A stretch of 64,000 nucleotides of DNA from a virus. Lineage: Duplodnaviria > Caudoviricetes. The stretch spans positions 32,001-96,000 of IMG/VR virus record IMGVR_UViG_3300031994_000039, one strand, 5' to 3'. The notes under the pieces are model-generated. The model worked only from the letters and a program-made list of their open reading frames with translations, was not told where the DNA came from and ran no database searches. The position numbers and the translations under genes were made by a program. Below are positions 6,132 to 46,750 of the stretch, in pieces (the stretch's first letter is position 1; the number at the start of each line of letters is the position of its first letter).

Positions 6132-6338
6132 TCATTCCTCCCGTAGAAATTCCTCGAAGTTTTGACACAAAGGATTCTTCTCGCCAACCTTACATCCACA
6201 ATCCGGACAAGCATCAGGCATTTCGATGTCTTCGAACTTACGAAATCCTCCGCCAAATACAAATATTTGTGTGCCACATTCAGAACAGATAACATACCTG
6301 TCTTTCTCTGAAGTAACACCGCCATTAATCCATTCCAT
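6132..6338 (-). CDS. Zinc-ribbon protein, last member of the paralog array
   Basis: CSECG...CPDCG; C-terminus NFEEFLREE. Confidence 0.7.
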   Translation of the reverse strand: MEWINGGVTSEKDRYVICSECGTQIFVFGGGFRKFEDIEMPDACPDCGCKVGEKNPLCQNFEEFLREE

Positions 6339-6339
6339 C

Positions 6340-6849
6340 TTACTTACCTCCTAGAAAACTTACAAATTCCTCATGAACTACTGGTGTATTTTCTGCTATA
6401 TTTTCTACCGCACATCTTACTTTCGATATACCACTAGGGCTATATAAATGTTCGCACACTGAGATCATCTCATTCCACTCTTTAATAGCAGCATCCCTGT
6501 TTGGGTTTGGAGCGCAATGCTTTGCAAATCCGCAATTTAAATTACTGCACATGAAAAAGTGTCCATGCAACTTACTCGGGTTGATTGTCGCTGTTGGTTC
6601 GGCTCCGCACACTGGACATGGTACTAATTTATTAGCTGTTTCACACATCGCATTCCATTCGGCTACCGCATCAGCCGGATCAACAGCAAAAGAATGTAAT
6701 TTAGAAGAGCATGACGGATTGCCACACATCACTAAACAACCATCTTTTGCAGGTTTCCTAAGCCAGTCCCATATAAGGTTGTCTCTCTTAGGTCTCATTA
6801 ATACTGACTCTTCTCCGCAAACCGGACATGGTTTCATTTCTTCTGCCAT
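6340..6849 (-). CDS. Tandem Lar-like (restriction alleviation) zinc-ribbon domains
   Basis: Two PCPVCG...C-x4-C...A-x-x-x-WN units; ends VHEEFVSFLGGK; start chosen at RBS GGAGGTGA. Confidence 0.7.
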   Translation of the reverse strand: MAEEMKPCPVCGEESVLMRPKRDNLIWDWLRKPAKDGCLVMCGNPSCSSKLHSFAVDPADAVAEWNAMCETANKLVPCPVCGAEPTATINPSKLHGHFFMCSNLNCGFAKHCAPNPNRDAAIKEWNEMISVCEHLYSPSGISKVRCAVENIAENTPVVHEEFVSFLGGK

Positions 6850-6850
6850 A

Positions 6851-7126
6851 TTACTCACCTCCGCCGTCATCATAATCCTCCACAAGAGCACAGTTGACTG
6901 GGATCACATCAAGGTCATCACTGATTTCCCAGAGCCCACCAGTGTCCATTCTTATAGCGTTAGCAATAACTTCTTTTCCGGTAGTGTTTCGGAGATAACA
7001 TTCCGAAATAGCCATGAAAATTATTTGCGAACCATACTTAGCCACCTTAAAAAGTTCACCGCTATAAAGGTCTGACCTTCTGCGTTTTAAAACCGTATCT
7101 TTGGTCATTACTTTTAACTTACCCAT
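6851..7126 (-). CDS. Hypothetical protein (probable paralog of 18794-19033)
   Basis: Shared pattern L..GE.FKV...N...D.G.LW......V.PV..A.VE. Confidence 0.65.
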   Translation of the reverse strand: MGKLKVMTKDTVLKRRRSDLYSGELFKVAKYGSQIIFMAISECYLRNTTGKEVIANAIRMDTGGLWEISDDLDVIPVNCALVEDYDDGGGE

Positions 7127-7127
7127 A

Positions 7128-7475
7128 TTAATTACTCCTTAAAAATTCCATGAAACTGTCGTGTAAATTTTCTTCTTGTTGATTCGCTAATTCTATTTCA
7201 GACTTAACAAACGAGTTAAAATTGATCATCGACTTATAATAGTCTTCCGCAAGATTATTCCACATCCTAATGCAATCTGAAAATTCACTAGAAAAAGGTG
7301 TTGTTAACGGAAGACAATCACCAGAATTCCCTGCGTGACAACAACCTACTGAATAAAGATCATGGCTGAGAAAATTCTCCCCGCAACTTATACCAGGACT
7401 CATACCACATATCGGACATGGTAGCAACTCATTACCGATCAATCTCTTAACTGCGTCACTCCAGCTATTATCCAT
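7128..7475 (-). CDS. Lar-like zinc-ribbon protein
   Basis: LLPCPICG...CCH...C...MWN; ends LHDSFMEFLRSN. Confidence 0.7.
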   Translation of the reverse strand: MDNSWSDAVKRLIGNELLPCPICGMSPGISCGENFLSHDLYSVGCCHAGNSGDCLPLTTPFSSEFSDCIRMWNNLAEDYYKSMINFNSFVKSEIELANQQEENLHDSFMEFLRSN

Positions 7476-7863
7476 TATTACCCTCCTCTAGGAAGTTTAA
7501 AAAATCTTTATGACTTACATCTTCAAAGGACTGAACGTCTTTATTGTGGCTAGATTTTATTTTCCCTTGCTCACTCATTACTATCTCCACTCTTCTGTTC
7601 CAGCCCAGTACAGCAGTATGGAGCCAGTCATGCGGTGCTGTACGCAATTCCGGCTTACATTTATCCTGGTGTTGGACGCATAGTAATCTAAACGCTATTT
7701 TATTCGCTTTATTTTCATAACATATTGCCAAAGGAGTTTTTTCACAAAATGGGCACGGCTTTATATTGAAGCTCATTAATTGTTGTTCGTCTAATATTTC
7801 TATATATGCATTTCCCTCTATAGGCATATCATTAAGTCCATCATATATCGAATGCCATCCCAT
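7468..7863 (-). CDS. Lar-like zinc-ribbon protein
   Basis: IKPCPFCE...C-x-x-H...AVLGWNRR; ends SHKDFLNFLEEG. Confidence 0.7.
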   Translation of the reverse strand: MGWHSIYDGLNDMPIEGNAYIEILDEQQLMSFNIKPCPFCEKTPLAICYENKANKIAFRLLCVQHQDKCKPELRTAPHDWLHTAVLGWNRRVEIVMSEQGKIKSSHNKDVQSFEDVSHKDFLNFLEEGNNG

Positions 7864-7864
7864 C

Positions 7865-8203
7865 TTACTCACCTCCTAAGAAACTTACGAAATCATCGTA
7901 CTTAACATCATCAAACTGAATAAGCCCCTTGCGTTTTGCTATACGATTTTTAACGAAATCCACTCTATTATTCCAGAAAATGATAGCACCATCTAAAGTT
8001 ATTTTGGGTGGAGTGCATAACGTGGGACTAAACCCAGATTGACATGTTGGACATTTTAATATGTAGTAGGGATCGTCACTATCGTAATATGTTCCCACCG
8101 GGAGATGATTACATCCCGGACATAGTTTCACATCCGGACATAGCTTCGCATCCAAATACTTTGTCAAATCCACAGATATCATAGCTTCAACATCCTGATC
8201 CAT
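7865..8203 (-). CDS. Lar-like zinc-ribbon protein
   Basis: LCPGCN...CPTC...AIIFWNNR; ends KYDDFVSFLGGE. Confidence 0.7.
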   Translation of the reverse strand: MDQDVEAMISVDLTKYLDAKLCPDVKLCPGCNHLPVGTYYDSDDPYYILKCPTCQSGFSPTLCTPPKITLDGAIIFWNNRVDFVKNRIAKRKGLIQFDDVKYDDFVSFLGGE

Positions 8204-8204
8204 C

Positions 8205-8513
8205 TTACTCACCACCTAGGAACTCAACAAACTTTTCATGAGAAACCATTTGCTCTGTACGAGTGGGGCGTTTTTGATTGGAGAAGATATCATACTCGCC
8301 ATCATTCCACGCCTTCTGGCATTTCCAAACCCTATCGAATGTTTTAGTTATACAAGATCGTATATTTGAGCGCGAACTGTGAGTACATACAAATCTGTAG
8401 CATGTTTTAGAATTAGGGTTAGAAAGAATCCCGGCGTTGTATGAAATTAACTTTGGTCTTCGTCCGCATACCGGACAAGGGTTTAATACAAGGTCTACCT
8501 CTGTTATCGGCAT
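8205..8513 (-). CDS. Lar-like zinc-ribbon protein
   Basis: LNPCPVCG...CTH...AWN; ends SHEKFVEFLGGE. Confidence 0.7.
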   Translation of the reverse strand: MPITEVDLVLNPCPVCGRRPKLISYNAGILSNPNSKTCYRFVCTHSSRSNIRSCITKTFDRVWKCQKAWNDGEYDIFSNQKRPTRTEQMVSHEKFVEFLGGE

Positions 8514-8515
8514 CG

Positions 8516-8845
8516 CTAACCGCCTCCCAGGAATTCTACAAACTTATCATGGTTATGAAAAGTCATTTTCATACGCATTTTTGACCTTATATATTCATCG
8601 AACGTGTCGAGTATATCATCATAATCCATACCTCTAAGCACACGTGATTTTAAATTCCACGCAAGCATCGCCTCGGTAAGATCAGTGCAAGGGTCGGTTA
8701 TTACTGTCTCATATGGTATATCTTTAAACAGGTGCGAACAATGCAATCTATATCTTTTTTCTACACCATTTTTAGTACCATATTTGTAACTGTGCCTCTT
8801 AGGTTGATCGCCACAGTATGGACAAGGTTCAAGTGTTAAATTCAT
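8516..8845 (-). CDS. Lar-like zinc-ribbon protein
   Basis: LEPCPYCG...CSH...AMLAWN; ends NHDKFVEFLGGG. Confidence 0.7.
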   Translation of the reverse strand: MNLTLEPCPYCGDQPKRHSYKYGTKNGVEKRYRLHCSHLFKDIPYETVITDPCTDLTEAMLAWNLKSRVLRGMDYDDILDTFDEYIRSKMRMKMTFHNHDKFVEFLGGG

Positions 8846-8846
8846 C

Positions 8847-9146
8847 TTACATTCCTTTCTCGAATTCCTCGATGCAGTTATTGATAAACCCTGCTAGATC
8901 CTCGGCGTCTTTTTCCGATAACCGATCAGCTATCTTGGATAACATACCGAGCATATGCCGCATCTTTCGATTACAGTCAGCTACTTCGTTTCTTAACCCC
9001 TGCCCTAGTAATTCTATATCTGAAGCCGATTCTGCTCGTAATACTGCAGCGTTAGCATTAGAACAGCTTAAGCTAGACCAATCCACACGGTGTGACACAT
9101 CAGCCCAATCCATATGAATTGCTGTTGTTTCTTCCGGGCCCATCAA
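8847..9146 (-). CDS. Hypothetical protein
   Basis: ORF with AGGAG RBS, helical; lies inside the array. Confidence 0.55.
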   Translation of the reverse strand: MMGPEETTAIHMDWADVSHRVDWSSLSCSNANAAVLRAESASDIELLGQGLRNEVADCNRKMRHMLGMLSKIADRLSEKDAEDLAGFINNCIEEFEKGM

Positions 9147-9147
9147 A

Positions 9148-9702
9148 TCACTCCTTTAAAAAATCTGTAAGCTCATTATGAACTTTCTCTTCTTCTTTGT
9201 TGCATACTGAAATCCATTCATTAAATGCCTCATAAGGGTCTTCGTGCCACTCAGTTCTGAACAGTTCGTTGTTGGCTTGTTGATGCTTGTTACAATGCAG
9301 CGCAAAACGGTGTTCGCCAGCCACCGTCTTTCCCGTTCTGAATATTGGTTTGTTTCCGCAGATCGGACAAGTTCTAGCCCTATCCGGATCATCAATAATT
9401 GAAGCGCCTGTGATATGGACCACCTCATTCTCGCCTTCTGCGGACATGCTTTCTTCGTGAGATTTAATGCCTAGACGATTCATAACTATTCCATCCCATT
9501 CTATTTCAGCCTTTTCAAGACTTGAATACCAAAGGGTACGAATGTCTTGATGTTGTCCACAATATAACCTATAACTATTATGTTCGTCCTGCACCAAATA
9601 AGGTGCTTTACCGCAGAGCGGACAACCACTAATCTCTCTTTCATTAGTCGTCGCAACAAAATCTCCGCTCTCATTAAGGAACCCTGCTGTCATAATACTC
9701 AC
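9148..9702 (-). CDS. Tandem Lar-like zinc-ribbon domains
   Basis: Two CP(L/I)CG...C-x-x-H...RT-x-W...A-x-x-EW units; ends VHNELTDFLKE. Confidence 0.7.
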   Translation of the reverse strand: MSIMTAGFLNESGDFVATTNEREISGCPLCGKAPYLVQDEHNSYRLYCGQHQDIRTLWYSSLEKAEIEWDGIVMNRLGIKSHEESMSAEGENEVVHITGASIIDDPDRARTCPICGNKPIFRTGKTVAGEHRFALHCNKHQQANNELFRTEWHEDPYEAFNEWISVCNKEEEKVHNELTDFLKE

Positions 9703-9710
9703 TCCTTACC

Positions 9711-10883
9711 TTACCTTTCTGGATTCAACATCAGAACCCCTTCAACAATCTTATCAAGTGCGTAGTTAATCTTTTCTTCTGTCAAAAACCAGTCGAACGA
9801 TATTCTTACTGTGCAGAACGCCTCTTCGTCAGTCATCCCGATTGCTTTGAGCACATAACTTGGTACTGTTTCGTGTGAAGTACAAGCTGACCCCGCTGAT
9901 ATATACACTTCATTAGTGTCCAGATACATCAGTAATGTCTCACTGTCAACTCCGAAGAATGTAATGCTCAACGTCTTACCGTTGTTAAATTCCTGGCAGT
10001 TGATTCTGTATCTGCTCGGAGATAATCTCTTAGAAAGCTCATCACAGAAATACTCAGACAAATCCTTAGTATAATCAAGGAATCCTACATTTTCTGATAA
10101 TGTCAGAGCTGCTTCACCGAACCCTACAATACCCGGGACATTTTCTGTTCCCGCTCTCATTCCAAATTCCTGAGCAGAACCGCCATCAATCAGATGAGTT
10201 TCCACCTTCGGAAGACTTGGAAGCGAGAACCCTAAAGACTTAGGATCCCTTATATAAAGACATCCAACTCCCTTAGGTCCGTGTATCTTATGTGCTGAGA
10301 ATGAAGCGTAATCACAGCCGAGTTTCTTAACATCAACCTGAAGGCAAGATAATGCCTGGACACAATCAACATGAAGTTTCATTCCGAATTTCTTGCAATA
10401 TTCTGAGATCATTTCGATATCATTCACCGCACCTGTTTCGTTGTTGACATACATTGTAGAAACTAATGTCTTATGTGGTACTGCCACGCTACTGAGCTTT
10501 GTCTTAACTTCCTCTTCGGACAGAACACACTGTTCATTTACCTTTAACACTGGAGAACCAAGCACTTCATGGTATATTGAACTGTACTTTAAAACAGATT
10601 TATGTTCGACATTAGAACATATAATATTTGAGCATCCCTTGGCATTCTTGATTGCAAGATTGTTTGCTTCAGAACCGCCAGATGTAAAGATTATCTGTTC
10701 CGGTTCCGCATTGATTAACGCAGCAACCTGTTCTCTCGCCTTATCAATTGCAGCCTTAGCTTCTCTTCCAAGATTATACTTACTTCCTGGATTGCCATAG
10801 CACTCCTGTAAATAAGGGAGCATCGCGTTCACTACGTTACCAAGTGGCTTTGTTGTGGCTGCGCTATCTAAATAAACCTGCAT
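9711..10883 (-). CDS. iscS: Cysteine desulfurase (IscS/NifS, group I)
   Basis: YLDSAATT, FTSGGSEANN, PLP lysine in SAHKIHGPKG, catalytic Cys in SAGSACTS. Confidence 0.95.
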   Translation of the reverse strand: MQVYLDSAATTKPLGNVVNAMLPYLQECYGNPGSKYNLGREAKAAIDKAREQVAALINAEPEQIIFTSGGSEANNLAIKNAKGCSNIICSNVEHKSVLKYSSIYHEVLGSPVLKVNEQCVLSEEEVKTKLSSVAVPHKTLVSTMYVNNETGAVNDIEMISEYCKKFGMKLHVDCVQALSCLQVDVKKLGCDYASFSAHKIHGPKGVGCLYIRDPKSLGFSLPSLPKVETHLIDGGSAQEFGMRAGTENVPGIVGFGEAALTLSENVGFLDYTKDLSEYFCDELSKRLSPSRYRINCQEFNNGKTLSITFFGVDSETLLMYLDTNEVYISAGSACTSHETVPSYVLKAIGMTDEEAFCTVRISFDWFLTEEKINYALDKIVEGVLMLNPER

Positions 10884-18345: not shown

Positions 18346-18797
18346 TACCTTAACAGCTTCCCTTTCTTATACATTGCGTTTAGTGCTGACCGCCACTTAT
18401 CATTTATTTCCGGATCAATTATGATTCTTGGAATATGATAGATGTCACACACAGCCATCTCAACACGACAGCCTTTTGCGTCATCATAATCCTCGCTAAA
18501 CAGCGCCTCGTCGCACGTAGACAGCAGTTTAATCGCCTCGCCTAAGCAGTACACCCTTCCTTTGAAACATGCCCTCACGCCCGCTGTAGGGGCTGTATTA
18601 GGCTTCGTTTCAACAGTGATCCTGCCGTCAACGAACTCAACTTCATCTTCTTTTATCTTCCGGAATCTTGGTTCGCCATCCTGAGGAACTTCCATGATAT
18701 ATCTGTTGCTACAAAACCAGGATTTCATACGCTCAATTTCACGCTCTATACGCTCGTCAGAGCGTCCATCGAACGGGAGTGATAAGAATACCCTCAT
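18345..18797 (-). CDS. DUF4406 / nucleoside 2-deoxyribosyltransferase-like protein
   Basis: MRVFLSLPFDG...LSTCD...AKGCRVE. Confidence 0.7.
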   Translation of the reverse strand: MRVFLSLPFDGRSDERIEREIERMKSWFCSNRYIMEVPQDGEPRFRKIKEDEVEFVDGRITVETKPNTAPTAGVRACFKGRVYCLGEAIKLLSTCDEALFSEDYDDAKGCRVEMAVCDIYHIPRIIIDPEINDKWRSALNAMYKKGKLLR

Positions 18798-19033
18798 TCC
18801 TCTGCACCCTCTACAAACGCGCCCTGAACGGGATATACGAGCTCATCCTTCTCGAATGTCCAGAGATAACCTACATCAAGAGCAGCGCAGTTGCATCTAT
18901 ACCCTGCCTCCTGAAGCTTCTCATCTCTTTCTCCGAGGTAGATATACATCGTTTTGTCCTCAAGATTTACCTTAAAAACCTCACCCTGTTCAAGCTTTCC
19001 CAAAGGTACTGGCTTTTTATGAATTATCTTCAT
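18794..19033 (-). CDS. Hypothetical protein (paralog of 6851-7126)
   Basis: GGAGG RBS; shared motif pattern. Confidence 0.65.
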   Translation of the reverse strand: MKIIHKKPVPLGKLEQGEVFKVNLEDKTMYIYLGERDEKLQEAGYRCNCAALDVGYLWTFEKDELVYPVQGAFVEGAEE

Positions 19034-23057: not shown

Positions 23058-23720
23058 TTAAAAAGCGTCGATTTCAAAGCTCTTCAGATCAACTAAAACC
23101 ATCTTCTTAATTCCTTCGCCCTTTACGAAGTGTATGAAGTTGGTTACTGCGATTGACGATACCACTCTAACAACAGGGCACACGCCCAGTGTAATGCCGC
23201 AAGCTGATGTGGGAGTTTCTGCCTTCGCTTCTTCATGGCTGAACTGCATTGTAGCCAGAAGATTTTCCCTCATGCTTTTATCTGACCAGTCAGCAGCGTA
23301 ATGCTGTGCGTGCTCTAACAAAGTTCTTATGTCGAACACTGCTTTAACCATCGGATTAAGCATATGTTTTTCACAGATTTCTCTGCGGATCTCGATACTG
23401 TCTACGCAAAGGAAGACATATCCTGCAAGAGTTTCACCGTTCCAACCCTTCTTTGTTTTGATCTCGATGTCCGGATTGATGTTCTGGAGAATACCCTTGA
23501 GAGCTTCTGTCTTTTCCTTGCCGACATCTTCTTTCGTGAACATCTGGTTCACGATATTATGTTCCTCTACCTTATCAAAATCCCAGAGAACCATTGACTT
23601 TACGCCACAGCGGGCGAGGTTTTCTGCGATTGTTGAACCGACAGATCCACATCCGATGATGTGGATGTTGCCGTTTACATTGCTTGGGTTGAAGTATTCG
23701 AGTGATTTTGATAAATTCAT
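23058..23720 (-). CDS. ThiF/E1-like adenylyltransferase
   Basis: IIGCGSVGS, WDFDKVEEHNIVNQ, FLCVDS, SACG (candidate catalytic Cys); no CxxC zinc pairs. Confidence 0.9.
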   Translation of the reverse strand: MNLSKSLEYFNPSNVNGNIHIIGCGSVGSTIAENLARCGVKSMVLWDFDKVEEHNIVNQMFTKEDVGKEKTEALKGILQNINPDIEIKTKKGWNGETLAGYVFLCVDSIEIRREICEKHMLNPMVKAVFDIRTLLEHAQHYAADWSDKSMRENLLATMQFSHEEAKAETPTSACGITLGVCPVVRVVSSIAVTNFIHFVKGEGIKKMVLVDLKSFEIDAF

Positions 23721-23721
23721 A

Positions 23722-24333
23722 TTAACACGCCTCCACAAATAATTCTTCAAGGTTCACCTTTTCTTCTTCAGGTTCTTCTTTGATCTGGACTTCCGTTGTA
23801 CAGTACTCTTCAAATGCCTTCATGAGTTCTTCGGCAAATTCACTTTCCTGTTCTTCTGTAAGAGCTGGTGTCTCAGGTTCAGGTTCCTCTTCCGGAATCT
23901 CATAATTGTCAACAATTTCATGGATGATGTCCATTATATCTGTTGCTGCTTCCCCTTCTGCGGCAGGTTCTTCTTCCTCCTCAGGGTCATCCTCTTCTTC
24001 GGGTTCATCTTCCCATTCCTGGTTGTTGTCCATATATGATTTGAGATCGTCTTTATAATCATTGAACTGCCCGTCGTTGTCGTCTGTTCCTCTCCACGTT
24101 CCGTCGTAGTCGTCGTGTATATATCTGTCATACCTGTCACTTGGTATATCATCAACCAAGCTTCTTAAATCTGACAGAGAGTCGCAGTACTTTGCGTCAT
24201 CGAGAATTCTGCTTTCAAATTCGCCGTGCGTATATAAACCGCCTGTGAAAACATCATTAAAATAATCATAATCCCTTGCGCATTGTTCCAGTTCATCATA
24301 GGTGGTGATATCTTCAAACTCTGTTCGTGTCAT
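23722..24333 (-). CDS. Highly acidic protein in the Ubl operon
   Basis: D/E-rich throughout, with EEEDDPEEEEEP tracts. Confidence 0.7.
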   Translation of the reverse strand: MTRTEFEDITTYDELEQCARDYDYFNDVFTGGLYTHGEFESRILDDAKYCDSLSDLRSLVDDIPSDRYDRYIHDDYDGTWRGTDDNDGQFNDYKDDLKSYMDNNQEWEDEPEEEDDPEEEEEPAAEGEAATDIMDIIHEIVDNYEIPEEEPEPETPALTEEQESEFAEELMKAFEEYCTTEVQIKEEPEEEKVNLEELFVEAC

Positions 24334-35479: not shown

Positions 35480-35878
35480 ATGTACACAATAGTAATAAAA
35501 CAAAAAGGTAGAGTTACCACTGAAGAGGTGAGCTCTCTCAAAAAAGCTAAGGATAAAATAGTAGAACTTGAGTCCAATTTCGAGTCCTCCCTAATGGCTG
35601 TTGTTCTGGATAAAGATTTTAATATGGTAATGTATAAAAACAAGGATGCGTGGGATAACGCATTTAAACCTGCGTCGGAAGCAAAAGAATGGAAGAATTT
35701 CAAACCTAGATCCTGTAGACATTGCGGATCCAAAGGAATTTTACGATACGCTAATTTTGGGCAGTGGGCAGGGTATAAATTCAGGGTTGAGTGTGAGAAT
35801 CCTGAATGCACCGGGGATCCGCCACGGTTTGCTGTCAGTCCAGAAGAAGCCATTGAAATTTGGAATTACAATCTATAG
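35480..35878 (+). CDS. Protein with C-terminal Lar-like zinc ribbon
   Basis: CRHCG...CENPEC...EEAIEIWN. Confidence 0.65.
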   Translation: MYTIVIKQKGRVTTEEVSSLKKAKDKIVELESNFESSLMAVVLDKDFNMVMYKNKDAWDNAFKPASEAKEWKNFKPRSCRHCGSKGILRYANFGQWAGYKFRVECENPECTGDPPRFAVSPEEAIEIWNYNL

Positions 35879-43454: not shown

Positions 43455-44471
43455 ATGGCAATGGAAGCGTTCTCGGAATGCGTAATCTGTTCGAGATGCG
43501 GAATTAAATATTCTAAGAGAAAGGGAAACTTCCCTGCTAACTTCTCGGATTTATACAGAGGCACGGGCACGCTTCATATTTGCAATACGTGCCTCGAAGA
43601 TATATTTAATAAATACTATGCGGAGTGTCAGGATAGCAGGACGGCAGTAAGATTGACCTGCCGAGCTTTAAACCTTTATTGGAACGAGCAGGAGTTCATT
43701 CTTGCGACGAAGCAGACTGCTATCAAGAATACAATGAGAGCATATGTGTCCAATATCAGAAAAGCAAAGAATTTGCATAAGACGTATGATGATACTCTTC
43801 GCGAAGAAGATATGCTTTTTACATTCGGCAAACCGGAGGAGAAAGAACCGGAACCGGAGATAATAGAAGAACCGGAAGAGATATATGAAGAAGAACCGGT
43901 TTATGACATTTCGGAACAGACAAAAATTTTCTGGGGTCCGGGATACACAGACGAAATGTATCACGAACTTGACTGTAGGTATCAGTACTGGATGTCAGAG
44001 TTTCCGGAGAACAGTGAACTTGATATCGGTACCAAGGCAATCATCAAACAGATTTGCTCACTCGAACTTGATATAAACAGAGATCGTGCTGCGGGCAGAC
44101 CGATAGATAAATCGGTTAATGCATTGAATACTTTACTTGGCAGCGCGAACTTGAAGCCAGCTCAGAGGAAAACAGAGGCGGATGCGGAGAATGAACTGAT
44201 GAGCACTCCGCTGGGCGTATGGCTCTGGAAGTATGAGAATAAAAGACCTCTACCGGAGATAGATCCGGACTTGAAAGATGTGAACGGAATAAAGAAATAC
44301 GTGTTCACTTGGATGGGGCATTTAGGAAAAATGCTCGGATTAAAGAACTCTTACACAAAGTTGTATGAAGAGGAAATTGAGCGGCTAAGAGTGGAGCGTC
44401 CTGAATATGAGGACGAAGATGATGAGTCATTGCTGATTGATTCGTATAGCGATGGTGATAGCCATGAATAG
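43455..44471 (+). CDS. Zn-finger protein upstream of terminase (possible small subunit)
   Basis: CSRCG, CNTC; position. Confidence 0.6.
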   Translation: MAMEAFSECVICSRCGIKYSKRKGNFPANFSDLYRGTGTLHICNTCLEDIFNKYYAECQDSRTAVRLTCRALNLYWNEQEFILATKQTAIKNTMRAYVSNIRKAKNLHKTYDDTLREEDMLFTFGKPEEKEPEPEIIEEPEEIYEEEPVYDISEQTKIFWGPGYTDEMYHELDCRYQYWMSEFPENSELDIGTKAIIKQICSLELDINRDRAAGRPIDKSVNALNTLLGSANLKPAQRKTEADAENELMSTPLGVWLWKYENKRPLPEIDPDLKDVNGIKKYVFTWMGHLGKMLGLKNSYTKLYEEEIERLRVERPEYEDEDDESLLIDSYSDGDSHE

Positions 44472-46750
44472 GCGTGAAGCTATCATGGAGGGAGCTGCCT
44501 ACTGGGGCAGCTTCTATCGTCACAATATTGATAAATTCGTTGAGGATTACTTACACATAAGGCTCAAACGATTCCAGAGAGTTATTTTAAGCATGATGGT
44601 TTACGTCACTGTATTTGTACTGATAGCTTGCCGTGGTTTAGGTAAGACATATCTCAGTGGCGTGTATTGTTGTGTTCGCTGTATCCTGTGGCCCGGCACG
44701 AAAATATGCATAGCCTCAGGAACACGTAACCAGGCAGGCGCAGTTCTTGAAAAGATAATGCTCGAACTGGTTCCGAATTCTCCAGAACTTAGAAACGAGA
44801 TTGATTACAAACAAACAAAGATCAATGGTACTCAGGCTCAGATAGTTTTTAAAAACACAAGCGTTATTAAGGTTGTTACAGCGAGCGATAGTTCTCGTGG
44901 TAATAGATGTAACGTTTTACTTTTGGATGAATTTAGATTAATTCACAAAGATATAATTGACACAATCCTCAGAAAGTTCTTAACACTTAGGCGTATGCCA
45001 AGATACGAAGAGCTTACCGAAGTAGAGCGAAGAGCTGAGTATGACAAGGAAAAGAACTTGACACTCTATATGAGTTCTGCATATTTTAAGGACCATTGGT
45101 CATACCAAAAATGTGTTGATACATTTAAAGCTATGATGGATGATACACGCAGACAGTTCGTCTGTGGATTTCCATATCAGCTTTCAATTTCAGAAGGTTT
45201 ACTTGATGCTGAAGCGGTTGCGGATGAAATGTCTGAGTCTGACTTTAGCGAAGTAAAGTGGAGCATAAACATTTCTGTGCTCCTTAAACTCATTGAACTC
45301 ATTAACCTAATGAGGGTACTACAATGTAGTGCTAACAGGGAAACCCTAAGTGCATAAGCATATGGCAATCCTGTGCCAAGACATAATTATATGTAAGGTG
45401 CAACGACCATCCTATATGGAGTACATCAGAGACAGGTACTGGTGGAAGCGGTGAGAACGAGTAGTCGTTATGATATGGTCTGATCTATTATGAAAGTAAT
45501 AGCTAACAAATAAATAGGAAATGGATGCGCTCTTCTACGGAAGTGGCGAAGACGCGTTCTTTGATTTCTCTTCTATTTCAAAGAACCGCAGAATAAAATA
45601 CCCAATGTTGCCGGAGAAACTTGCAAACAAGCTCGGCAACTCTAATCAGGTTAAGATACCTCAGAAGGCTCACGGTGAGGTAAGAATACTTTCTGCCGAT
45701 ATTGCGCTCATGTCGTCGAAGAAACATAATAACGACGCGACTGCGATATTTATTAATCAGATGAGTGCTACTAAAATTGGCAGGTATGTGAGCAACATTG
45801 TTTATGCAGACACATACGAAGGCCTGCGAACAAATGAACAAGCGTTAATAATACGCAAACTATATGAAGAGTATGATTGCGATTACATTGTACTTGATAC
45901 TAACGGTAGACTGATGCCGCTTTGCATAGTAATATGCATTGAAAAAGTGAAGAATCAAGCGGGAAGGCTGAGATGCTAACCCGAACCGAAGGCTATTGGT
46001 AATACGATAGTCAGGGGCAACGCATAGGTGTGAAACTAGTTATAGAATATAATCACCCACGAGGCTTCACCATCTGAACAATTCAGATGAAAAGATATGC
46101 TGAACTTGTAGGAAATCAACTACAAGAGCTATGAGATAAAAAGCTCATAGGATAACAATGACCTGATCGGTCTTGGTGTGTTCGATGAACTCGCCCACGA
46201 TATTATTGATGCAGACACTGGAGAAATCTACCCTGCCCTCTCTTGCTATAACGACAAGACGATGGCAGAAAGATGTACAGTACCCGGTGCCGACAAAGTT
46301 ATATATTCAGTTAAAGCTTCAGCGCAGTTCAACTCAGACTGCGCATTTTTATTGCGTGAAGCATTTAAGAGCGGTCGTGTTAGATTGCTTGCAACAGAAT
46401 ACGATGCTGACGAATATCTAATGGAAATAAAGGGTTATGCTTCCCTGTCACCATCAGAGAAGCTTTCGATAAAACTTCCTTATATTCATACCACACTGTT
46501 GATAGACGAACTTACAAAACTGCAACACGAAACATCGGGCGGCAAGGTTCGTATCTTCGAGAAGCCGGGTATGCGTAAGGATAGATACTCATCATTATCA
46601 TATAACTACTACGTAGCTATTCAGATAGAAAACAAACTCAGCAAGAAGGCAAATAACAGTATAGAAGAAAGTTTCTTCGTTGTTAAACCTCCGAGCATTG
46701 GAAAGGCGGTGAACAGACACGGCACAAACAGAAAACAAACATTCTGGTAA
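44464..46750 (+). CDS. Terminase large subunit, spliced (exons 44464-45266, 45517-45907, 46166-46750; ~592 aa)
   Basis: ACRGLGKT, LLLDEFR, SADIA, LDTNG|IGLGV, KDRYSS nuclease motifs; the joined exons are in frame. Confidence 0.88.
45267..45516 (+). mobile_element. Group I intron 1 in terminase (one non-canonical splice site)
   Basis: P1 GGAGCAU/GUGCUCC, P10 CAUUUC/GAAAUG, P7 GACCA/UGGUC; the in-frame join makes the last base A. Confidence 0.8.
45908..46165 (+). mobile_element. Group I intron 2 in terminase
   Basis: P1 CGGU/GCCG, P10 AGACUGAU/AUCGGUCU, P7 GCAUA/UAUGC, terminal G. Confidence 0.88.

Follow-up and report, generated by a model that had tools for sequence, protein, structure and literature searches.

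The stretch of DNA analysed here (hereafter the window) comprises bases 32001–96000, that is 64,000 nucleotides, of the 112,506-bp IMG/VR record IMGVR_UViG_3300031994_000039, which has a CheckV completeness of 95%. From position 9693 down to 6132 of the window, ten genes follow one another head to tail on the minus strand, with stop and start codons that overlap or lie 1–3 bases apart; a cysteine desulfurase gene (9711–10883) immediately precedes this array. Eight of the ten genes encode proteins that end in the motif H-x-x-F-x-x-F-L plus 2–6 residues (the tail), whereas the other two carry neither a zinc ribbon nor the tail (Table 1). The phage genome further encodes a large terminase (TerL) with 47.5% identity to the YonF protein of Bacillus phage SPbeta, a YonO-type RNA polymerase, ERF and PD-(D/E)XK recombination genes, tyrosine recombinases, Pnkp/RNA-ligase and, among its other genes, a retron-type reverse transcriptase. 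Because of the YonF-like TerL, the YonO-type polymerase and this gene complement, the uncultured phage is SPbeta-like, and its hosts are uncultured Firmicutes, probably of the gut.

An earlier interpretation of the letters alone, made without database searches (the sequence-only reading), had described the span as an array of eight zinc-ribbon paralogs with Lar-like heads and a common C-terminal tag. All eight C-termini that it quoted are found in the sequence, and all tail codons lie on the minus strand. The count of eight holds for the tail genes, but the span contains ten genes, two of which are tail-less, and two of the tail genes are double-headed. Likewise, the heads are Lar-like in seven of the eight tail genes (the two double-headed ones included), but not in tail gene 8, whose 68-aa product has a double-CxxC ribbon and matches neither the Pfam family PF14354 nor a profile built from the array. 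A Lar-like gene outside the array (35480–35878, plus strand) indeed lacks the tail and ends in ...EEAIEIWNYNL. Two points had escaped the sequence-only reading, namely that the two tail-less genes are part of the cassette and that the tail resembles the tails of small terminases.

Table 1. Genes of the array, in the order of their strand, and two further genes of the window (positions in the window; tail positions in brackets)
Gene	Position	Strand	Length (aa)	Heads and other features	Tail	Residues between tail and stop
Tail gene 1	9148–9693	−	181	two Lar-like heads (CxxC at residues 24 and 109)	HNELTDFL (9157–9180)	KE
Tail-less gene	8847–9143	−	98	no zinc ribbon; C-terminal half conserved		
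Tail gene 2	8516–8845	−	109	one head	HDKFVEFL (8528–8551)	GGG
Tail gene 3	8205–8513	−	102	one head; protein modelled with AlphaFold2	HEKFVEFL (8217–8240)	GGE
Tail gene 4	7865–8203	−	112	one head, two CxxC	YDDFVSFL (7877–7900); relatives HDDFVSFL	GGE
Tail gene 5	7468–7863	−	131	one head; PF14354 17.7 bits	HKDFLNFL (7489–7512)	EEGNNG
Tail gene 6	7128–7475	−	115	one head	HDSFMEFL (7140–7163)	RSN
Tail-less gene	6851–7126	−	91	no zinc ribbon; predicted small all-beta protein		
Tail gene 7	6340–6849	−	169	two Lar-like heads	HEEFVSFL (6352–6375)	GGK
Tail gene 8	6132–6338	−	68	double-CxxC ribbon without WN	CQNFEEFL (6144–6167); relatives HQKFEEFL	REE
ThiF/E1 (ubiquitin-like E1)	23058–23750					
YonG homolog	43455–44471	+	338	directly upstream of TerL; N-terminal CxxC..CxxC; acidic tail ...DEDDESLLIDSYSD...		

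The heads can loosely be assigned to the Lar zinc-ribbon family, named after the restriction alleviation protein of the Escherichia coli Rac prophage, which alleviates type I restriction. Only tail gene 7 exceeds the gathering score of 28.6 bits of PF14354 (Lar_restr_allev), with 42.3 bits; tail gene 1 (26.4 bits, in two stretches) and three more tail genes (13.7–17.8 bits) remain below it, and tail genes 2, 4 and 8 give no match. The seven Lar-like genes encode ten Lar-like heads between them, each of which has the pattern CPxCG ... C-x(1-2)-[CH], followed by a W-N helix. This pattern is absent from tail gene 8, where the Pfam matches are of the DZR type only. The heads are single four-ligand zinc ribbons with a mutual identity of only 21–39%, as opposed to the nearly invariant tail. 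A search of 1.84 billion representatives with the array profile yielded 798 Lar-like cluster representatives; among the best 150 of these, the tail is confined to the close family, and ordinary members terminate just past AWNRR. Whereas ordinary Lar-like proteins thus measure 60–75 aa and stop after the AWNRR helix, the array proteins add a linker of variable length and the H-x-x-F-x-x-F-L helix, multiply the head (1–4 per protein) and are encoded in an array together with two unrelated genes.

The head could not be assigned to any fold. Foldseek of the head model against the PDB returned nothing at E ≤ 0.001, a wide VIA-align search found no significant structural neighbour (best Z 4.2, for double-stranded RNA-binding domain and hibernation-factor-like topologies), and the best match of a PDB sequence search, the zinc region of DpnI, is not meaningful at E 0.009. 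At the DNA level, no GenBank phage matched the array in a blastn comparison; a locus search of IMG/VR with one array protein found no relative, and a literature search found no description of the tail, the linker, the multi-head proteins or the cassette. Linker, tail, multi-headed proteins and a cassette that includes two extra genes hence appear to be undescribed.

We regard the tail as a separable module and not as part of the Lar fold, because linkers undergo insertion and deletion next to it, proteins with several heads carry it and Lar relatives do without it. In ortholog alignments, the stretch that joins the WN helix to an unchanged tail shows insertions or deletions of 0–45 residues; among the 12 orthologs of tail gene 6, they reach about 45 aa while the tail is invariant. 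Relatives of the array proteins possess 1–4 heads per polypeptide and exactly one tail, which is always C-terminal, and the relatives of tail gene 1, with two or three heads, follow this rule. The fusion that gave rise to a 317-aa protein in one relative (locus L006) destroyed the upstream gene's tail, so that ...ITHEEFVSFLGGE and its stop codon became ...ITQEVSSV.... The tail is also attached to the non-homologous head of tail gene 8. In agreement, AlphaFold2 models the protein of tail gene 3 as a head of strands and a helix (predicted local distance difference test, pLDDT, 75–91), a linker (pLDDT ~51) and a separate tail helix formed by residues 92–98.

To what extent the tail is conserved as a peptide was analysed on 53 tails from six related phages. 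Phe7 is present in all 53, encoded 33 times by TTT and 20 times by TTC, and Leu8 likewise in all 53, with five different codons; position 4 is Phe in 47 of them (TTT 23, TTC 24), and position 1 is His in 48, Cys in three and Tyr in two. Within ortholog groups, we count 26 extra synonymous codon states compared with 11 amino-acid states. At positions 1, 4, 7 and 8 the ratio is 15 to 3, with all three amino-acid states at position 1; positions 4, 7 and 8 are free of amino-acid changes. The comparison of synonymous variation that had been suggested along with the sequence-only reading thus reveals free synonymous change with fixed amino acids, and conservation at the DNA level only was not seen. 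Because synonymous codons vary while the residues F4, F7 and L8 stay fixed, the codon pattern indicates that the tail is under purifying selection at the protein level. All three tail genes of the divergent relative L015 have kept the tail, as HDNFIKFI, HDKFISFL and HDEFVDFL. The motif is not a chance feature: in the remainder of the 112.5-kb genome, F..F[LIVM] within the last 15 residues is found in none of ~166 putative genes outside the array, and no real gene other than those of the array ends in the stricter motif. The repetition within the array itself stems from paralogy. On a helix, F4, the hydrophobic residue 5, F7 and L8 come together on one face, and positions 2, 3 and 6 mostly have acidic or polar residues. 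A word search with the last 40 residues of one member was too narrow to reveal other carriers of the tail, since it returned only five close orthologs.

The residues behind F-L have a different origin. GGE, GGK, GGG, RSN, KE, REE and EEGNNG represent the purine-rich Shine–Dalgarno sequence of the next gene (GGAGG, AGGAG, GAGGAGG or GGGAGG) read in frame. The L8 codon always ends 13–15 nucleotides ahead of the next start, the stop codon of tail gene 5 overlaps the start of the following gene, and in relatives with a lost stop codon the frame continues into the next gene (GGEQDGSGC). As the sequence-only reading had noted, GG and the adjoining residues are coded by the ribosome-binding site, but the F-x-x-F-L part is not accounted for by it. 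The two tail-less genes also end in residues encoded by a ribosome-binding site (…DDGGGE and …EKGM at their stop codons), yet lack F-x-x-F-L; since they are equally coupled, coupling does not need the motif and the two are separable. GG itself occurs in only four of the eight tails. A double-glycine leader or a ubiquitin-like GG was dropped on this pattern, GG not being conserved, and a membrane-targeting helix because the tail is acidic. Mimicry of the FtsZ C-terminal peptide, which has the same hydrophobic spacing, found no further support and was set aside on the same kind of comparison.

Syntenic arrays were recovered on five Logan/ENA contigs (L001, L002 and L004–L006) and on two more divergent ones (L015 and L016); overall, eight close relatives have the cassette. 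In every array-bearing contig, both tail-less genes occupy the same relative places, even in L015 with only three tail genes. For comparison, 80 relatives were collected from IMG/VR by TerL (52–85% identity), and 20 of these records, 10 of them at least 90% complete, were examined. The tail-protein profile matched nowhere in these 20 genomes, and the 98-aa and 91-aa proteins are absent from all of them; the cysteine desulfurase is present in 16 of the 20, and other genes occupy the DNA after it. Because the cassette is missing from these relatives and other genes stand in its place, its distribution identifies the array and the two tail-less genes as one accessory cassette, a changeable insertion at a hot spot in one sub-lineage. 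Such a come-and-go pattern would be typical of host-manipulation or counter-defence loci. In loci L126–L141 of the IMG/VR relatives, the cargo behind the cysteine desulfurase includes, for example, a pair of genes for 340 and 448 aa, which marks the site as an accessory-gene hot spot. Locus L015 additionally contains, at 1–2417, an IS605-type TnpB gene and a Thg1-like gene upstream of Pnkp/RNA-ligase.

The gene content of the array varies among relatives by fusion, deletion and gain, as a comparison proposed together with the sequence-only reading brought to light. Heads are gained and lost within genes, with some breakpoints in the CPxCG-coding repeat (for instance L005, 9978–10274), and gene fusions pass through the tail region, leaving remnants such as a 37-aa open reading frame in L002 that still carries the tail. 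Repeated DNA in the array is restricted to the CPxCG-coding motif and a 43-nucleotide junction (three copies, 70–84% identity). The latter is the repeat family to which the junction TT.YTAGGWGGTRAGTAAGATG, correctly reported to occur three times, belongs, and the accompanying idea that junctions aid shuffling is plausible.

On the basis of these results, we consider it reasonably probable that the cassette encodes modular proteins with divergent heads and one docking helix for a common partner. Each protein would consist of 1–4 zinc-ribbon heads, then a flexible linker that differs in length, a single short, acidic and amphipathic helix and 2–9 filler residues coded by the ribosome-binding site. 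The divergent heads would each recognize a different target, either protein or nucleic acid, while the shared helix would insert its hydrophobic face (F4, the hydrophobic residue 5, F7 and L8, with H1 as a cap) into a groove on the partner. In consequence, either the partner would be brought to many targets or many targets to the partner. We infer both the docking role of the tail and the identity of any partner from the sequences; tentatively, some host protein ranks first among the candidates, before TerL and then the two tail-less proteins. The adaptor family suggested by the sequence-only reading fits this layout of variable heads, flexible linker and one handle, but two of the partners that it named, the sliding clamp and E2, are unsupported. 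Several observations weigh against a dedicated docking helix. A loose hydrophobic i, i+3, i+4 pattern is generic, as it appears in the last 15 residues of 41 of the ~166 other putative genes; the predicted tail helix is only moderately confident (pLDDT ~69); and the array-bearing phages are all close relatives, for which reason the partner cannot be inferred from co-occurrence.

With an eight-residue putative handle under strong selection, a free linker and fast-changing heads, the case is a clean one that can be tested directly. Eukaryotes and a few phage replication systems offer well-known examples of short docking peptides that many proteins share; in phage accessory genes, such peptides are rarely recognized. 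Once the partner is found, a set of 'hypothetical' Lar-like proteins would gain a function, and it would become clear whether phages use adaptor families as cells use E3 adaptors.

One candidate partner emerged from a scan of IMG/VR with a back-translated DNA pattern for H[DE][DE]F[VI]xFLGG, for which about one chance match is expected and whose GGNGG part favours gene ends. Only one other phage matched, at the C-terminus (…PEHDEFVAFLGGKNG) of a 144-aa protein. The gene of this protein lies directly upstream of TerL in an HNH-small terminase (TerS)-TerL layout, its stop codon overlaps the TerL start, and its relatives include the annotated 'terminase small subunit' of Bacillus phage B13. In this HK97-like TerS family, all 33 distinct tails from IMG/VR read [DE][DG]F[DE]xF[VLI] plus 4–8 residues, and the TerS tail …DDEFVEFLGGKNV has FVEFLGG in common with array genes. 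The family spans the IMG/VR loci L142–L221 and the GenBank phages B13, Athena, CBP1 and PLE2, which are cos-type Firmicutes phages. The C-terminal region in lambda and P22 TerS binds the N-terminus of TerL (PMC9611059); the tail of the HK97-like family is likely a TerL-docking peptide candidate. A similar situation is found in the SPbeta-like phage itself: the C-terminus of the YonG homolog consists of an acidic run and LLIDSY, and ~80 IMG/VR relatives keep DEDDE[ST][LMF][LF]x[DE][IV][FY], which has the same i, i+3, i+4 spacing. SPbeta-like phages probably have their small terminase, so far unannotated, in the YonG-like protein.

When the array tail is compared with those of small terminases (the HK97-like TerS family, the YonG-like proteins, lambda gpNu1 and P22 gp3), the first two families display, as the array does, an acidic run, then F-x-x-hydrophobic-hydrophobic near the C-terminus and finally residues coded by a ribosome-binding site. 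Seven of the eight array tails, like all 33 distinct tails of the HK97-like family, place F-x-x-F-[VLI] behind acidic residues no more than ~10 residues from the C-terminus; the eighth array tail has L-x-x-F-L. Judged by its residues, the array tail falls into a class of motifs that is found in two terminase families at the site expected to dock on TerL. TerL is a candidate partner because these two families end in the same acidic tail, and by mimicking the TerS tail the zinc-ribbon proteins might bind either the TerL encoded by the phage itself or the TerL of HK97-like co-residents. The absence of F..F[LIVM] tails from the other genes of the genome is consistent with this proposal, which we nonetheless regard as rather unlikely. 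The single match to the DNA pattern equals the chance expectation, and a scan of 596 Gb of bacterial genomes yielded chance matches only: all 29 were internal or antisense (for example, opposite accA), with no prophage copy and no clue to a host. Moreover, TerL binding by the tail of either TerS family is predicted, and YonG is itself a putative TerS. In contrast to TerS genes, the array does not adjoin TerL and is located in the early replication and recombination arm, ~35 kb from TerL and on the opposite strand; its proteins have no TerS oligomerization core and carry His at position 1 where TerS has Asp, Glu or Gly. The heads are not homologous to the YonG-like protein (hhalign probability 0.3), and array-less relatives package their DNA without array genes. 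If TerS mimicry were true, the cassette would represent a natural family of small-terminase-tail mimics with changeable zinc-ribbon heads, which could retarget TerL, inhibit packaging motors that belong to rival or resident phages, or shield TerL from host sensors such as Avs.

Alternatively, the partner might be encoded within the cassette, with the tail docking on the 98-aa or the 91-aa tail-less protein and gathering the heads into a multi-headed complex. Both genes are translationally coupled to tail genes, and their fixed places in all array-bearing phages seen, together with their absence from the array-less relatives, accord with such a hub. The 98-aa protein is conserved in eight array-bearing phages, mainly in its C-terminal half, which by eye resembles two amphipathic helices. 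The 91-aa protein, conserved in seven, is modelled by AlphaFold2 with five strands (pLDDT 74) and is possibly an SH3-like barrel, SH3-fold barrels including peptide-binding ones. We consider a hub in the cassette doubtful, however, as co-occurrence is expected from physical linkage alone and the Foldseek matches of the 91-aa model to SH3-fold barrels are weak and not significant (E ≥ 0.14). Neither PHROGs nor the ESM Atlas provided a function for the two proteins, and the 98-aa protein is without a family match. The 91-aa protein also has a weak paralog elsewhere in the genome, a 79-aa open reading frame at 18797–19033 on the minus strand (E 1.8e-5), which is a further argument against such a hub.

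It is improbable that the tail serves structure or self-association, by packing on the head to which it is attached or by pairing with the tails of other array proteins. The pLDDT of the tail helix does exceed that of the linker, but hundreds of Lar-like proteins fold without a tail, a single tail serves one to four heads and is found on a non-homologous head as well, and both the variation of the linker by up to 45 residues among orthologs and the divergence of the heads contrast with the near-invariance of the tail.

The partners named by the sequence-only reading, according to which the tail recruits the phage E2 (making the array proteins E3-like adaptors), the sliding clamp or a host AAA+ protease, are taken together highly improbable. 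E3 substrate adaptors combine many heads with one handle, and the phage carries a ThiF/E1 gene; the design of the array proteins is analogous. However, each of the 10 near-complete relatives encodes E1 but not the array, so the ubiquitin-like kit works without it; no link to the array beyond the shared genome was found, and GG occurs in only half of the tails and is coded by the ribosome-binding site. Clamp-binding tails offer a precedent in T4, whose otherwise unrelated proteins gp43, gp33 and gp55 share a short hydrophobic C-terminal peptide that docks on one hub. The spacing of H-x-x-F-x-x-F-L also parallels that of the PCNA-interacting peptide (PIP) box as generally known, Q-x-x-[LIM]-x-x-[FY]-[FY]. 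Yet the profiles PF00712, PF00705 and PF09116 (beta-clamp, PCNA and gp45 types) have no match in the 112.5-kb genome, and no clamp gene of any type was found. The tail fits neither clamp-binding motif: the pentapeptide QL[SD]LF occurs in none of the tails, and the PIP box was rejected because position 1 is His where Gln is needed (48 of 53) and position 8 is Leu and not aromatic (53 of 53). Nothing points to a protease.

Hardly credible, finally, is a signal at the RNA or DNA level in which the letters serve translational coupling or recombination and the peptide is incidental: the constant distance of the motif from the next start, directly against the Shine–Dalgarno sequence, and the junction repeat in arrays whose gene content shuffles would suit it, but third codon positions are free while the first and second positions of F4, F7 and L8 are fixed, two equally coupled genes lack the motif, and both the divergent L015 and unrelated TerS genes keep the same peptide but write it in other codons.

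Two further features of the phage genome deserve mention. The TerL gene, whose ATPase exon spans 44467–45244, contains a group I intron after this exon (45245–45502, plus strand; Rfam RF00028, 52.6 bits versus a gathering score of 50), and the gap at 45979–46178 between the open reading frames of the TerL nuclease domain may be a second insertion. Between the ERF and PD-(D/E)XK genes, a gene on the minus strand (1526–1918) encodes a 130-aa protein with the C-terminus ...DDPEGILSGGAVPF. Its relatives end in ...EIDDSQLPF, the classic C-terminal tail of single-stranded DNA-binding proteins, and because of these relatives the phage seems to encode a single-stranded DNA-binding protein of its own.

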